Source: Isurus oxyrinchus
Taxonomy: Eukaryota
Length of the DNA: 64,000 bases
Direction of reading: 5' to 3'
Assembly: GCA_026770705.1 (NCBI GenBank)
Contig: JANJGN010000007.1
Span: forward strand, 96,968,001 to 97,032,000
Part shown: piece by piece, positions 8,740 to 64,000 of the stretch
Position numbering within the stretch: position 1 is the first letter of the stretch
Layout of the letters: every line of letters starts with the position of its first letter
Made by a program: the position numbers and the translations under genes
Notes under the pieces: generated by a model
Databases searched by the model: none
What the model was told of the DNA's origin: nothing
Seen by the model: only the letters and a program-made list of their open reading frames with translations

Positions 8740-9125
8740 TGGGACGTAGTAACTATCATCCCTCTGTTTCAGAAAAGATGAAAGGAAAACACAAAACGGT
8801 GGAATATAGGCCATTTAGTCCAGCATCAGTTTCAGGTAAAATCCAAGTGGTTATTATGAGGGACCTCCTAACAGGGCACGTAGAACATCATAACGTGATT
8901 ATGAAGAGGCGGCAGGAATTTTCATCAGAAAAACGTGATTGACAAATCGTTCTGCCTAATGTTCCTGGTAGGATAGATAATGTGAATACAGTGAATGTAA
9001 CATTTGGAAAGTTGGCAAACCAATAGGCGATTACACAAAATGTGGATACATTGAATTGGCGGTAAGGTATTGACCTGGATTGAGGATTGCATAATGGGTA
9101 GAAAAGGGAGACTAAGTCTGGACAA
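8740..9125 (+). mobile_element. CR1 RT fragment
   Basis: EYRPFSPASVSGKI motif (cf. NYRPVSLTSVVGKI). Confidence 0.65.
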
Positions 9126-15359: not shown

Positions 15360-15525
15360 GGCAGAAAAACAAGATGACAGTAAATGTATGAGTTTAAGAA
15401 TAAAGTTGGTGGCTTCATTCAGATTATCAACGTGCACGTGAAGAATGCAATGGGTGTCAGACGCATTGCCACACAACCTGGCAAATTTGTTGGAAGCGGA
15501 ATGATATCCAATTTATCAGCATGGG
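15360..15525 (+). pseudogene. IgSF V-domain exon remnant (3' half), paralogue of 59789-60106
   Basis: Reads NKVGGFIQIINVHVKNAMGVRRIATQPGKFVGSGMISNLSAW(G)|gtagc versus [43 protein letters not shown](G)|gtagg. The F-strand Cys is replaced by Arg and the 5' half is missing. Confidence 0.75.
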
Positions 15526-15639
15526 GTAGCTATGAAGAAGAAAAAAACTGAGTTTTCTGTAATTAGCAACTCGCGTTTGGAAGAGTTTCCGATTGTGCAT
15601 TGAAAGTTTTATATTACCAAGTAACACCTTATATTTTTC

Positions 15640-15790
15640 TTAATCTTTCATGGGATGTGTGGCAAGAACAAAATTTGTTACCATTACCAATCACTCTTGA
15701 AGTAGCTTGCTCGGCCATTTCCGAGTGCATTTAAGAGCCAACCACATGACAGTGGACCAAGGGTTACATATAAACCAGGTAAGGCAAGGA
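15640..15790 (-). mobile_element. tRNA-SINE family 3' part; same position as the copy at 60222-60360
   Basis: TCATGGGATGTG...GGCCATTTC..AGAG.CAACCACAT, located just downstream of the V exon in both gene copies. Confidence 0.65.
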
Positions 15791-16654
15791 GGGCTAGAGA
15801 AAGCCATATAGCGCGGTGAGCCAGCTATGCAGTTTCCAGTTGTGCTGTATGTACATATTCAGTTCATACAGTTGGCATATACAACACATTTTACCATGTA
15901 CTACAACATTTCAGCATGATTGGTCAGGTTGGGCATTGTCTATTAGTTGTTTTATTGAAATTGCAGTCGACGCGTAGAAAACCACAATTTCAAATATTAT
16001 TGCTATATCGGTAAAGGGTGATATTAATCGCACAGAATGCAAACAGAATGTTTTTAATTGATGGTTTGATTTCATTACCTTGGCTATCGAAGGATGAACT
16101 TCCATACTGTGATTGTGATTTGTGCACCTGTAATTTAACGTGGTATATCGAAGTCCAGTGAAAGCTGCCTTTGCTAATAAGGCTGCTCAAATGCTCTTCC
16201 CACCACAGCACGGCGCCAACAACCATTACCACCACCATCTTATACTGTCATCATCCTTTTGATTTCCAAGGGACCATGCTAAATCTTCTTATCAGACATG
16301 GGTAGAGTTAAATTATTCATCAGTTGTTATTGTTAACAAAGTGATATTTTTCCTCAGTCTCTTGTCAAAAGAGGCGGTATTCAATATGAAGACAAAGTAC
16401 AACCCACTTGACAATACCTTCCAGCAGAAAGAAAAGCATGCGACCCTTAAAATGGGTGGCCTATTTACTTGCACCTGAGTTGCGTCCTCTCATACCTTGA
16501 AATTCCCGTCAGTATTAAATTATCTTTAAAAAGATTTTGATAATGATGCAGATATCTATTGCGCACAGTAGAAATCTCTGCCTAATGTCAACCATCGCTT
16601 TTCTTCCCCCAAAGCAATTCAGCGAGGTCAGGAATGGGTTGACACAAAGTTTTA

Positions 16655-18075
16655 GAACCATAGAACCACAGAAATGTTACAGCACAGAAGGAAGACATTC
16701 CACCCATATTGTCCATGCCAGCCCGAGGACACCCAGGTATCCTTTCTAATCCCACCATCTTTGCTTTGGGCCCATTAGCCCTGCAGCTTACAACACCTTT
16801 GGTGCAGATACAGATACTTTTTAAAAGAGTTTCATGTTTGTGCCTCTACCACCAACTTCGGCACCAAATTCCAGGCACCGACTTCCCTCTGCATAAAGAA
16901 GTTCATTCTCATGTTCCCCATACACATTCTGCCATTTATCTTGAATCTACGTCCACTATTTCTAGAATTCTCCATCAAGGGAAACAATTTTATCCTGTCC
17001 AATCTATCTATTCCCCTCATAATTGCGTACAAATCAATCAAGCCACCTCTCACCTCCCAAGTAATCCCAACCTATCCAATCTCTCATCATCGTGACACTT
17101 TTCTAACCCTGGCAACATTCTTGTAAACCCCATCTGCATTCTCTGCAGAGCTATTTCGCCCTTCCTGTAATGTGCGACCAGAACTTCACAAAATACTCCG
17201 GTTGTGCACTCACCAGTGTTTTATACAATCCCAACATTATATCCTTACTTTTATATTCTATACCTCTGCCAATGAAAGAGAGCATTCCATATGCTTTCAT
17301 TACAATCTTGTCTTCTTGGACTGCTGTCTTCAGGAATCTGTCTACTGTTAAGCAAATATCTCTCACTTCATCTACTCCCATTTATTTTGTAATCCTTGTA
17401 ACTGTTTGACCTCCCTTAATGTATCACCTCACACTTTTCTCTGTTAAGATCCATCTGCTGCTTTAATGCCCACACCACCAAACCACCTAAATAGTTTTGG
17501 AGATTATGGCTATCCATTACTATATCCACTACTCAGCCAATCTTTGTGTCATCTGCAAGTTTCCCAATCATGCCCCCCACGTTCACGTCCAAATCATTAA
17601 TATATAACACAAGCAGCAAGGGTACAAGGCCGAACCCTGTGGAACACCCCTGAGACAACTTTCCATTCGCAAGAACATCCAGTAAAAATTACCCTTTGTT
17701 TCCTGTTACAAAGCCAACCTTTTATCCAGTTTGCCACATTACCCTGAATCCCATGGTCTTTTCCTTTCCTGACCAATCTACCATGTGGAACTTTGTCAAA
17801 TTCCTTGCTAAAATCCATCTACACAACATCCACTACACTACCTTTATCAAATCTTCTTGACACTTCCTCAAAGTATTCAATCAAATTTGTGAAGCAAGAT
17901 CTTTCTTTAACAAATCCATGCTGACCATCCGTAACTATCCCATGCCTTTCCACATGACAGTTAATCCTATCTCTCTGGAATGATTCTACTAATTTGCTCA
18001 CCACTGATGTAAGAGCAATTGGCCTCTACTTGTTTGCCATTTCCTTTGATCCCTTTATAAACCATAGAACTATGT
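16655..18075 (-). mobile_element. CR1 LINE 3' half inserted in the V-C1 intron
   Basis: QHGFVKERSCFTNLIEYFEEV, MDFSKEFDKVPHGRL, LYKTLVSAQPEYFVKFWS and RGGLIDLYAIMRGIDR; 3' tail repeats AGAACCAT/AGAACCAC. Absent from the paralogous intron at ~61140. Confidence 0.9.
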
Positions 18076-18138
18076 TTTTAGCTGTTTACTTTTCTGATGT
18101 CAAAGTTAAGATTTTTCTTTTCATTTTCATTTTCCTAG

Positions 18139-18442
18139 TTCCACCAACTCCACTGAAAAATAATTATCAGCCACCTGAAAATGTTTCATCAGCGGCCCCT
18201 GCAGTTCCATGCTCATAGACTCCTTTTACCTGAAGAATATCAGGTTTGCTTAGTACAAGGATGACACCAAAACTACAACAGGGACAAAGGTCACGATGAA
18301 ACCCAAGAACGATATGCAGTACTATGTTTCTTGTGGCTTTCAAGAGGCGCAGATTATCCAGCACGGAAATGTTAATTCCTCACAGTGCACTCAATATTTC
18401 TCAATGCCTATGCCACTCCGATTATCACCCACCATAACACAG
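18139..18442 (+). pseudogene. IgSF C1-set exon 1 (pseudo) of the decayed gene copy
   Basis: Acceptor tttcctag| then (V)PPTPLK...FYLKNIRFA*YKDDTKTTTG...YYVS, ending at donor ag|gtaaga. The FYPxxIxxxW motif has Trp changed to TAG; frameshifts present. Confidence 0.8.
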
Positions 18443-59370: not shown

Positions 59371-59567
59371 CTGTAACTGCTGTCTCTTCTGCGAATGCCC
59401 AACTCTTTTAGTAGACCTCATCAAGGTGAAAAAGTAAAGGCGTGTTCTCACCACATCGACCGGATATTACACCGCATTGTGACGTATTCGACAAGCCTGC
59501 TCATCAGATTCTTCTAAGGCACCAGCCAGTTTGTGCTCTGTTGCTCTGGCTGATCGGCTCGTTCAGA

Positions 59568-59622
59568 ATGTTATGGTGCTTTGGATTTCAGTGCCTCTCT
59601 GTGTTGATGCTCATTTTCACAG
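59568..59622 (+). CDS. Signal-peptide (leader) exon of an IgSF V-C1-C1 receptor-like gene
   Basis: ATG TTA TGG...: MLWCFGFQCLSVLMLIFT(G)|gtacc. The 55-nt exon has a phase-1 donor compatible with the next exon. Confidence 0.8.
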
Positions 59623-59788
59623 GTACCTATTCCTTTTACAGGTTGATTTCTCACTAAATCGCACATTTATATAATTTTCATCAATTCATCATGTTTTGTT
59701 GTCTTTCGGACGGATTAAGGGACTCACGTAACCTTTCGGTTTTTCTGCTGTAATTTTATCTCACACAATCGGATTTGATTTTCTGAAG

Positions 59789-60106
59789 GCTCCGGTCAGA
59801 ATTCGGTGACTGTAATACAGATTCCTGAGAACATGAACCGAAGAATGGGTAGGAACGCTACATTTGGTTGCTCTCTTCCTTTCATTGAAAACGGTGCAAT
59901 TCTTTATGGACGCTGGTGGAAAGAGGGTGAAAATCAATATTTACGCCCGGAGCAAGATTTCAGAATAATAACTTTCCCCAGCGTATCCGGCGGCATCCTT
60001 CATATAATCAATGCAAGTTTGCAGGACGTAGGTATATATGATTGTACTATGACCAATCGAGGCACATTTGTTGGAAACGCAACGGGGTCCAATTTATCTG
60101 TATCGG
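59789..60106 (+). CDS. Intact IgSF V-set exon with a germline J-like G strand (SIRP/NKp30-like architecture)
   Basis: tttctgaag|(G)SGQNSVTVIQIPENMNRRMGRNATFGCSLPF..YGRWWKEGE..LHIINASLQDVGIYDCTM..FVGNATGSNLSVS(G)|gtagg. B-strand Cys, C-strand Trp and DxGxYxC are present; phase 1-1; no stops. Confidence 0.88.
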
Positions 60107-60221
60107 GTAGGTTTGGAAAAAAAAGAGAGAAGGAGTTGTCGGTAACTAGTAATTCGCACTTTGAAGCTTTTCTCGTTTGTGCTTCGAAAGGTGTGCATTG
60201 CAACAGAAGGTATTTTTATTT

Positions 60222-60360
60222 TTAGTCATCCATAGGATGTTAGCAGACGAACATGTGTTTCCCATCCGTAATTATGCTTGAACGGAATGTCTTGATCGAT
60301 CAGTTCCAAGAGCAGTTAAGAGTCACCCACATTGCATTTGGACTTGAAGTCACATAATTG
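60222..60360 (-). mobile_element. tRNA-SINE family 3' part in the V-C1 intron
   Basis: CATAGGATG..CCCATCCGTAATT..GAGCAGTTAAGAGTCACCCACATTGC. Confidence 0.6.
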
Positions 60361-61205
60361 CAAACGAAGTCGCGCCGACTATGCAGTGTCCATTGTTTTA
60401 TGCGCATGTAATCAAATTGCGACTTGGATCTCCATACTTAATATTCTATTACCTGTCACATCATCTCAGCAATATTTATCACGATAAGCATTATCTGTGA
60501 GCAGTCTAATCGAAATTACAGAGTTATCATGTTGTGCAGTACCATAAAATGTTGCGCATATATTTACTTTATTGATTACGAGTAAAGATTCTGCCAGTCT
60601 GCACACTGATTTGAACACATTTGTTGGTTTATTTTATTACTTTGGGTAGCGAATTATAAACGTTCCTTCTAGGATTCTGATTTGCGCATCTGCAACTTAA
60701 TAAGTTTTGTGTAAGGTCTTTGAAGGTCCGTATTACTAACAAACAATGCCTGCTTAATCACGAATCCTATATGTTCATTTGATCTCCAATAAGTAAGGGA
60801 GCATGTTGAATATTGATGTCACTTTCAATTCACCGTTTCGAAAAGGAGGAGGTAGGCAATCGGACACCAGTTTATAACCCTCCCTATATTATTTCCGAGG
60901 CGAACAACAAAAGTGCTGTCCTGATAACGGACGGCCCATTTACTAGCACCTGTCGTTAGTCAGTTGATTACTTCAAATTGCCCTCAATTTACTTTTATAA
61001 AGATTGGCTCTAATTAATATTTATAAGGATATTACTTTGAATTTAGGTACCGAAAGCGTGCAGAAAAGATCTTTGCTTAAAGCCCGCCACCGGTATCAGT
61101 CCCCAATGACTCACTGTGATTAACAATGGCCTGGAATAAAACGTTGGGCTGTTAAACTTGTCCAATGCATAAATGAAGATTTTTTCTTCCCTTTCATTTT
61201 CCTAG

Positions 61206-61510
61206 ATCCACCAACTCCACTGAAAATTAACTCTCAGCAACTTCTAAAAAATCAGCTGCATCTCTTTCTCTTCAATATAGAACATCTCTCTATTTCCCCA
61301 AGGACATCAGTTTCACTTGGTCCAAGTATCAAAACTACAGCAGGGGTACATACCACAATTAAACCTAATTTCGATGGACTATATCAAGCTTAAAGCTGGT
61401 TACAGGAGACGCAGGCTATCCAGACAAGCACTATTTATACCTGCCGGTAGCTCACAGTACCCTCCAAAATTCAGCATCGGTCAATAACGTTGTCATCTAT
61501 CCTAACAATG
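61206..61510 (+). pseudogene. IgSF C1-set exon 1, disabled
   Basis: tttcctag|DPPTPLKINSQ..YFPKDISFTWSK..DGLYQA*SWLQETQ..IYTC.VAHSTL. Frameshifts, an in-frame TAA, loss of the B-strand Cys and an apparently mutated donor. Confidence 0.85.
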
Positions 61511-62620
61511 TTAACAATTTTCGTAGGGGAATAATATTTGAAAATACATCTGATCTGTTATGCCAGTACGGGTTCTTTGGAGTTTGTGTTTAACTTAGCT
61601 TCACGACGTAGGCATTTTACTTATAGTTCTGTAAATTAGTTCTCTTCAACTACACATTCAACGGCCTTTGTTGAAATGTTCTATGTGAACTGCTCCAACA
61701 ACTTTCTGGATCTTCCCAACACACAATGAAAAAATACTTCTCAAATTCCCTGTTATTTCTGTTATTGCCCAATTATTTCAACTATGTGACTGCCGGTTGT
61801 ACATTTACACTGCTTCCTCTCAAAGCCCTTCTTTTTCGTAGCCTTAATACTTTCTGTTGTAACGTGAATATCCCAGATTCTGCAATCACTCTAAACAGCA
61901 GGAGGCGTTCATTGCCCTAAGCATCATTAATACATTCACAACGGTCTTGACATCCCTGGTGAACTCTCTTCCCAACTTGGTGATAGTAGTGGAGCTGATA
62001 ACTTTCCAGTGACTTATAAAGTTTAGCATCACGCCCGTGTTTTTTTAAATTTAATGTCGCTATCTGAAAAGTAAATTAATTGCAGGAGCATCCGTAATCT
62101 GATTATGATCTTTCCCTGCCACGTTCAAATGCTGCTGAATGTGAACCTTGATATTCGACTGCTTTTGCCTCAAACTATTTTTTTTAGATTCTACTACCCC
62201 TCCATGTTTTCTCAGACGATGACCACATACATTAAGTTGCACCGACATTCTGCCTGACCATTTCGTCAGTCTATGTCATTATGATGGTTTGCAATGTCTT
62301 TCAAACTCCGAACTAAGTCGCCATCACAGCATTTTCTATGATCCACAAAATTCTGCTCGATATGTTCCAGTCCAACAGCTTTACATGTACCAAGCAAAAC
62401 GTTGGTACTCATAATTATATAGGAGAGACACGATATAAATTTGACCTTTCGAAATATACTGCTCAGTTTTCAGCTACTGGTAGAGCACAGTGAAAATCAC
62501 TGCACAAAATGAACCTCCCTCACCGTCACCATATCGTCAAGTTAGGAATGAACTGAATCACAAGACAGAGTTGCTAACGTTATCTTATCTCCAAGAAACA
62601 TTCATTTCCTGTGCTCCGAG

Positions 62621-62929
62621 TTCCACCCGTGCCTCTGAAAATCAACTCTCAGCCATAAGAAAATGATGCCCCTTCGTTTGTTACTTATCTTTTCATGGCA
62701 TCTCCCTTTTTCCCCCCCGAAGAATGCCAGTTTCACGTGTTATAAGGATGCCACCAAAACAGGAAAAGTGATACTTATAATTTCTCACCCACTAACCAAT
62801 GGATGATATGAAGATTCTAGAGGCTTTCAAGGTATCCAGGCTATCTAGACACAACTACTTATACCTGCATGGCAACTCACAATACTCTCCAAATTGCAGT
62901 TATGTTCACTCATATTGCCTCCTCTCCAA
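62621..62929 (+). pseudogene. IgSF C1-set exon 2, disabled
   Basis: ag|(V)PPVPLKINSQP*..KNASFTCYKDATK..NG*YEDS..TYTCMATHNTLQ..|gtaag. Stops and frameshifts. Confidence 0.8.
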
Positions 62930-64000
62930 GTAAGACTTCTGATATAATAATAGAACCTTAAAGGACAATTGGTCGGACATACCGGTGCATTTAATTGAAA
63001 TAGGTGCCTAATTTAGTCCCTCACCACAGCTTGTTACTTATAACTCGACAAATTGTTCTTCTTGAAGCAAATGTTCAACGCTCTTTAATCAATTTTATTC
63101 CTTATCTTCTCCCAGTTGGAAACTTTCTGGATCATCCCAACCCTGCATGAGAACATGTATCTCCAATTTTTCCAATGCATTCCTTTACCAGTGTATTCGA
63201 CTGCTGGTTATGCATCAATGTATCTCTATAATCTTTTATAACCTTACTCACGCAATTAGATGTCTTCATAAATATATTTTTCCCTCTATAGGGTAGTCTC
63301 TGAATATTCCTCGTTCTACGAGAAGATCACAACCTCTCCGATCTCTCCAAGTCACAGGAATGCACATCCCTCTGAACTTCCTCGATTCCACTCCATGTCT
63401 CCTCGTCCTTGTTATACTGTGCAGCCCACAATTGGGCATAATAGTTGACAGATGCTTAGATCCTGATTTCTAAATTTTTAGGATGACTTCGTTGGTTTTG
63501 TATTTCAGATTACTATGTACAAATTCATTTCAACCAATGCGCATCCATAGACACCTTGTGTTCTTGTCCTACCATCTGTAAAATCTAATGATAATGCATA
63601 CGCAGTTTCTACTGTTTTTGCTTATACCTGAAAAAAAATATTAATTTCATTTCACTGCCTCTGTTGTTTAACCCAAAGTCTGCATTTCAAATGTATTCAC
63701 ATTAAATAATAATTACGATGCTTCCAACCATTCCATTAGTCTATTTGTGTCATCCTGAAATCCAAGACGGTCTACAAAACCTGAATCATCCATTGTTTCT
63801 ATCATGAAGGATCTTTGGAACTGCAGTCACGATATTCCAGCCAAATTCCTTGTCGCATATCCAATAAAGCATTAGTCATCACATTGATTCCTGGGGGATT
63901 CCCAGTGATTATGAGTGTCCTGTTTAAAAAAGAAACATTTGTGGATCACAACTTTTTGTCTCCTTGATTATAGCTATTCACCTGCAGAAGGTGCCTTATT

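Follow-up and report, generated by a model that had tools for sequence, protein, structure and literature searches.

PRARP and the tetrapod VJC1 genes are mentioned as non-rearranging VJ-C1 genes in PMC10751288, where VJ-C1 (a variable domain with its J-like end, followed by a C1-set constant domain) is the layout proposed for the precursor of the antigen receptors. PMC12227049 describes UrIg as secreted and as having three C1 domains, and UrIg2 of the nurse shark as having nine C1 domains plus a transmembrane (TM) region and lying in an immunoglobulin (Ig)/T cell receptor (TCR) complex; it also gives NKp30 as linked to the major histocompatibility complex (MHC). The gene considered here, referred to below as the focal copy, is a member of a V-C1 family and starts at position 59568 of a 64,000-nucleotide stretch of the Isurus oxyrinchus genome (the window, G000:C7:96968001-97032000; genome 4.98 Gb). 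Judged from its sequence, the focal copy is most probably a broken tandem duplicate, an unprocessed pseudogene of a receptor gene with a leader, a V(J-like) domain, a C1 domain, a TM segment and a tyrosine-bearing tail. It is a new but broken member of its family, and the explanation is an ordinary one. The original prediction, made from the window alone, had placed it among immune-type receptor genes that do not rearrange and have the V(J-like)-C1 layout, which is correct; a recombination signal sequence (RSS) is absent.

The beginning of the gene is open. The leader exon (59568-59622, on the + strand like all exons of the gene) starts with ATG at 59568 and ends in a canonical donor at 59622 (G/GTACCT, the slash marking the exon end). 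The V exon (59789-60106, 318 nucleotides (nt), phase 1-1) has the acceptor TTTTCTGAAG and the donor G/GTAGGT. On re-reading, both exons are open and phase-compatible with canonical splice sites, as predicted. The V exon encodes a single-exon V(J-like) domain, which is one codon shorter than in the paralogues, and its AAG acceptor is weak. The spliced leader and V form an open frame with four N-glycosylation sequons, a number inside the family range of 1-5; four or more are found in 3 of the 31 open V exons. Past the V donor the frame continues through intronic sequence (60107-60225, + strand) to a TAG at 60223-60225, so that leader, V and read-through together make an open frame of 163 amino acids (aa). 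Read-through of at least ~40 codons is seen in 4 of the 31 open V exons, the focal copy included, and has a chance of ~0.11.

A scan of 59400-63200 with the RSS consensus found no RSS-like heptamer-spacer-nonamer. Neither an RSS nor a separate J, the features of rearranging Ig and TCR genes, was found in the focal copy, and the G strand lies within the V exon itself. The four sequons, the read-through to 60225 and the lack of an RSS had all been predicted correctly. The J-like character of the G strand stands in part: it is in the same exon and has no RSS, but it reads G-N-A-T-G and is missing the GxG motif. GxG is kept in 29 of the 31 open V exons of the family, and both exceptions are C1-broken copies. 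The first Gly of the motif, unchanged in all 17 of the other V domains aligned, has become Ala in the focal V. The changes of D-A-G to D-V-G and of the acceptor from TAG to AAG took place on the focal-species side, and D-V-G or Y-D-C (D-V-G-x-Y-D-C in the focal V) occurs in only one of the 31 open V exons, the focal one.

The remaining exons carry the damage. The first C1 exon (C1a, 61206-61510) has three deletions (-1, -5 and -1), a TAA stop, a B-strand Cys replaced by Tyr and a donor that reads G/TT. The second (C1b, 62621-62929) is a duplicate C1 that contains several stops and has at least five indels in its interior. Single-frame pieces from the broken C1 exons gave no match in a Pfam scan, and re-reading of both sets of lesions confirmed the predicted stops and frameshifts. 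The intron after C1b (62930-64000) continues beyond the end of the window, where a downstream TM exon had been suspected. This exon was located at C7:97034199-97034309 (66199-66309 in extended window numbering), open and in frame with V (phase 1 to 1); its donor is G/TT, compared with G/GT in two paralogues. It is followed by tail exon 1 (C7:97034893-97034936; 66893-66936), which is open, by tail exon 2 (C7:97036870-97036967; 68870-68967), which has a YAAL motif and is frameshifted (98 nt versus 99, with a stop in the original frame), and by the last tail exon (from C7:97037164; 69164), which is open and contains VNYTAL and FYSQV. The order of leader, V, C1, TM and tail is colinear between the focal copy and the intact paralogues. 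Because the TM donor is lost and tail exon 2 is frameshifted, the decay extends beyond the C1 exons, and three features of a functional gene, an intact C1, a TM splice donor and an intact tail frame, were looked for in the focal copy and found missing.

The orthologous gene in a related species, organism B, was compared over the contigs X8, X14 and X12. It is colinear across the whole gene and differs at 430 of 9966 bases (4.3%); the upstream 164 nt differ at 4.9%, which is the background rate. C1a is also dead in B, with three stops. The -5 deletion, the second -1 deletion and the Cys loss are common to both species, and the first -1 deletion, the TAA and the donor loss belong to the focal species only. 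The frameshift in tail exon 2 seems to be common to B as well, as read from two gap letters in the B contig and from the gap rows, which occur at 8906 and 9271 only and of which one pools many contigs. B further has a 1-nt insertion within a stretch covering intron 1, V and the A-run after V, and the V donor is canonical in both species.

The ten listed differences in the V exon comprise nine replacements and one silent change, and 9.7-10 replacements are expected at the background rate. Values of omega (dN/dS, the ratio of nonsynonymous to synonymous substitutions per site) of 0.2-0.3 are rejected (p 0.001-0.01), 0.5 is borderline (p 0.04-0.06) and a neutral V is compatible with the data (p 0.22-0.28). 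The comparison gave no sign of purifying selection on V after the two species separated, and the 9:1 ratio, with omega of 0.3 or less rejected (p ~0.005-0.01), speaks against the purifying selection on leader and V that had been proposed. The changes on the B side fall at conserved sites: a Gly to Ala, a Thr to Pro beside the F-strand Cys, and one sequon lost. The asymmetric decay itself had been taken as a sign of selection on, or recent conversion of, leader and V, which finds little support in the family. Among at least 45 V-C1 pairs on C7, 26 have both exons open and 7 have both broken; copies with V open and C1 broken and copies with the reverse pattern are equally common, with 6 each. 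The same tally holds two unpaired V and three unpaired C1 exons, a C1 exon being present at 45 of the 47 V loci examined; open means an unbroken frame only, and some open exons are without a cysteine.

Branch rates come from a three-way comparison with two intact paralogues and have wide intervals. For C1a of the focal copy dN is 0.17, dS 0.29 and omega 0.59, versus 0.39 and 0.50 in the intact paralogues. Therefore C1a has not been dead for long, and its death falls within roughly the final 18-33% of the branch length, or 0.05-0.09 substitutions per site, with a wide error. C1b, for which omega is ~1.2, has been dead much longer than C1a. For V, dN is 0.28, dS 0.32 and omega 0.88, versus 0.14 and 0.83 in the intact paralogues. 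In a quick tree the terminal branch of the focal copy is 0.97, the second longest of 65 rows (median 0.13).

These rates and lesions suggest the following history. For most of its branch the focal copy would have been a fast-evolving inhibitory-type V-C1-TM receptor. It would have died at the time estimated for C1a, with the same wide error, and before the split from organism B, and it would have decayed since then, with few lesions so far. Leader and V are probably still open because the pseudogene is young and there has been little time for lesions to land, and no functional protein would be made from the copy. It is likely that the open first exons reflect chance and not a new secreted protein. 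The chance that six open reading frame (ORF) lesions all miss leader and V is 0.076, or 0.28 for the three that predate the split; the chance that V is without a stop after ten substitutions is 0.68, and that leader and V are without a frameshift, 0.43.

Several observations weigh against a pseudogene whose first exons are open by chance. V is open across a branch of dS ~0.32 and therefore was clearly under selection for most of that long branch. The V of an intact neighbour has an omega of ~0.83, so a high omega is no proof of drift. The 9:1 ratio, from ten changes only, is also compatible with diversifying selection; since an omega near 1 is found for V domains of intact members too, so few changes do not tell it apart from drift. 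Between the leader and its counterpart in B there are 0 differences over 55 nt, with 2.4 expected (P=0.09). In cluster 1 of the family alone, 11 pairs are both open, 4 are V-open/C1-broken, 2 are V-broken/C1-open and 4 are both broken, a split of 4 versus 2; the stretches of cluster 2 were picked by V score, which makes the tally incomplete and biased. The six ORF lesions are confined to C1a and tail exon 2. These two exons can be skipped in frame, and leader, V, TM, tail exon 1 and the last tail exon are left open. The chance that the six lesions miss leader, V and TM is 0.027 (0.06 with splice lesions included), and that they miss all five exons, 0.003 (0.007 with splice lesions); both calculations are post hoc.

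The last of these points bears on a C1-less membrane receptor, in which V would be spliced directly to TM, with the two dead C1 exons skipped, and tail exon 1 to the last exon, to give a V-TM-ITIM protein (ITIM, immunoreceptor tyrosine-based inhibitory motif). The five open exons match in phase, and breakage is confined to exons that can be skipped. Such a form might still be live in B, or it might have been live after the death of C1a and persist here only through a weak cryptic donor or as a short-tailed read-through, for which the frame past TM is open for 23 residues. Bird PRARP genes reportedly have a degenerate C1 and single-V products. However, the TM donor is lost in the focal copy, the V changes fall at near-invariant residues in both lineages, and the omega of C1a points to a late death with no long C1-less period. 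V-TM without C1 is found in 0 of the 33 database relatives, which counts for little as these are gene models. We consider it unlikely that the focal copy is, or recently was, a C1-less exon-skipping receptor under diversifying selection, past or present. If the V-to-TM splice were true, it would show a route to a single-V (NKp30-like) receptor from a V-C1 gene.

That the V donor is read through to the TAG at 60225 to give a secreted single-V decoy is very improbable. The 163-aa frame with its leader and four sequons would suit such a product and an AATAAA is present at 61135, but this nearest polyA-like signal is ~900 nt downstream, the length of the read-through is within chance, and the donor is canonical in both species. 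The tail has 7 differences in 119 nt between the species, and in B the stop reads TAC, which undermines the secreted form that had been envisaged.

Recent gene conversion from a working paralogue, which would have refreshed leader and V, has still less to recommend it and is largely refuted. Tandem clusters in general permit conversion, but the V branch is long, the B orthologue is colinear across the gene, and no donor with >50% amino-acid identity was found among the 43 V matches, in a search that scores the best candidates only and in an assembly that is possibly incomplete. The closest V paralogues have 46-50% protein identity, and DNA identity to paralogues is no higher over leader-intron-V (66-70%) than over C1a (69-73%). 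Conversion was rejected on these identities.

That the gene is intact and its C1 lesions are assembly errors, a doubt raised with the prediction itself, is hardly conceivable, and nothing was found to favour it. For C1a such errors are ruled out by the contigs of X1, X5, X6 and X7 and by the two frameshifts shared with organism B. The X1 contig, possibly from the source sample, spans the leader to past tail exon 1 with 1 mismatch and 0 gaps. X5, X6 and X7, three further samples that carry the same species label and come from one study, are identical over C1a, with a 9-base hole at its 3' end in X6; C1b is covered by X1 and the related species only. Runs X5-X7 (12-15 million letters) have a depth near or above 1000 over window positions ~59470-62370. 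X5 is uncovered beyond this interval in the 10 kb compared, as if the region had been obtained by targeted capture.

As a pseudogene the focal copy matters little: its decay is of the ordinary kind that goes with birth-and-death evolution among clustered immune receptor genes. The family is more interesting than the copy itself. The focal V has at least 43 matches, all on C7, and the C1 of the intact neighbour has at least 55, of which 53 are on C7. The genes form cluster 1 (C7:96.39-97.57 Mb) and cluster 2 (C7:108.6-110.05 Mb), with a single further gene outside both at C7:114.8 Mb. The window holds a second family copy (15393-18391, + strand) with V and C1 remnants, more decayed than the focal copy. 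The downstream neighbour (C7:97071.7-97083.6 kb) looks intact, with leader, V, C1, TM and three tail exons; it too has a dead second C1. Two ORFs picked by eye within 100 kb of cluster 1 in either direction, the only ones tested, are a rhodopsin-type G protein-coupled receptor and a pyridine-nucleotide oxidoreductase, which we take to be OSGIN-like.

The focal V as a single sequence retrieved 0 of 166 candidates in a homologue search. A profile of 18 V exons succeeded, with 44 matches and relatives in sharks, rays and chimaera, whose automatic names are SHPS-1-like, SIRP-like, Ig lambda-like, tapasin-related, NCR3LG1-like and CD276. Among 33 cartilaginous-fish relatives (database gene models, with a snake protein and a multi-Ig protein set aside), 32 have the layout V-C1 and one has V-V-C1. 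Four genes of this genome were seen to have a second C1, which is broken in every one of them, even in the neighbour at C7:97.07 Mb that is otherwise intact. Because of these two observations, the working architecture of the family is leader-V-C1-TM-tail, with one C1. In a quick, unrooted tree of family rows only, the focal V falls in a clade of nine rows (Shimodaira-Hasegawa-like approximate likelihood-ratio support, SH-aLRT, 100) with intact neighbours and proteins of horn shark, catshark and stingray. A search for relatives limited to 52-184 aa gave one 91-aa fragment. PDB searches with V and the V profile, and a search of 1.84 billion sequences, brought up mostly multi-Ig repeat proteins and pointed to no family. 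Look-alikes in an atlas, to be taken as leads only, are an 'SHPS1 fragment' as the nearest to C1 and generic domains for V. The V profile also matches turtle and snake proteins (P0087, P0076, P0058, P0135 and P0027) with tandem V-like domains, automatically named pIgR-like, FcRL5 and titin-like.

Some intact members have tails with LTYxxV/L and TEYAxL; in others the TM segment begins with an Arg and the tail is without a motif. From these sequence features the intact members would be surface receptors of a paired kind, some activating and some inhibitory, with birth-and-death evolution. In cartilaginous fish, germline-joined VJ-C1-TM genes form a large tandem family, in which both inhibitory-type tails and Arg-bearing TM segments occur and which goes under inconsistent database names. 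No paper on the family was found in a literature search that had most subscription journals outside its reach; it is possible, though somewhat doubtful, that the family is undescribed as such.

The family resembles SIRP (SIRP-alpha/SHPS-1, beta and gamma) in the germline V with a J-like end, the C1-set domain, the TM segment and the multi-tyrosine inhibitory tail of its intact members, a tail that is frameshifted in the focal copy. The best single-domain PDB matches of an intact family C1 are residues 223-314 of SIRP-alpha and -gamma (E 1.8e-10 to SIRP-alpha domain 3); this match is not diagnostic, as MHC II beta domains come next with ~1e-7 to 1e-8 and equally high scores are reached by multi-domain Ig chains. 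Among the 60 best PDB matches of the V profile there is no SIRP. The V-C1-C1 order, which the original prediction had held to be the SIRP architecture, is not a meaningful likeness here: the family norm is one C1 and not two, the focal copy is broken, and the resemblance is incidental because the second C1 is a dead duplicate. V-C1-C1 as a working form was rejected on the same norm. In the thorny skate, one model (P0178) among 18 further matches examined has an intact V-C1-C1 layout with two near-identical C1 copies, so local duplication of an exon can produce a layout like that of SIRP. The neighbour of SIRP is NSFL1C, a SEP-domain gene. No SEP-domain gene was found on C7; matches are only on C12 (106.25 Mb) and C5 (100.64 Mb), with no family-type V or C1 within ~50 kb of them. 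The single C1 and the absence of a SEP-domain gene on C7 both set the family apart from SIRP.

NCR3/NKp30 and B7H6 share other traits with the family. NKp30 has a VJ-type V, some relatives are automatically named NCR3LG1-like, and in several the TM segment begins with an Arg and the tail has no motif. The layout of B7H6 is V-C1-TM. To our knowledge NKp30 is without a C1 and B7-type V domains are without a J-like end. A single VJ directly before TM with no C1, the NCR3 feature, was not found in the focal copy, nor is it the rule at the V loci, nearly all of which have a C1. UrIg and UrIg2 are similar in combining a non-rearranging VJ with C1 domains, and UrIg2 is the top whole-protein PDB match of an intact relative (E 1.5e-18), with a score that sums several domains and is nearly equalled by SIRP-alpha, CD276 and light chains. 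The family differs from UrIg in having one C1, and it is not on an MHC contig: the MHC class I matches are on C21 (31 of 33) and C16, not on C7.

The likeness to PRARP and VJC1 is one of layout. The intact relatives combine a single-exon VJ, one C1, a TM segment and an inhibitory-type tail with ITIM or immunoreceptor tyrosine-based switch motifs (ITSM), which corresponds to the layout of these genes. No named PRARP appears among the database matches of the family. PRARP is described as MHC-located in PMC10751288, and the present family is on C7, away from MHC class I. Since VJ-C1 is the proposed precursor layout, a phylogeny of the family together with its synteny, set against SIRP, PRARP, UrIg and NCR3, would bear on the origin of the antigen-receptor precursor.

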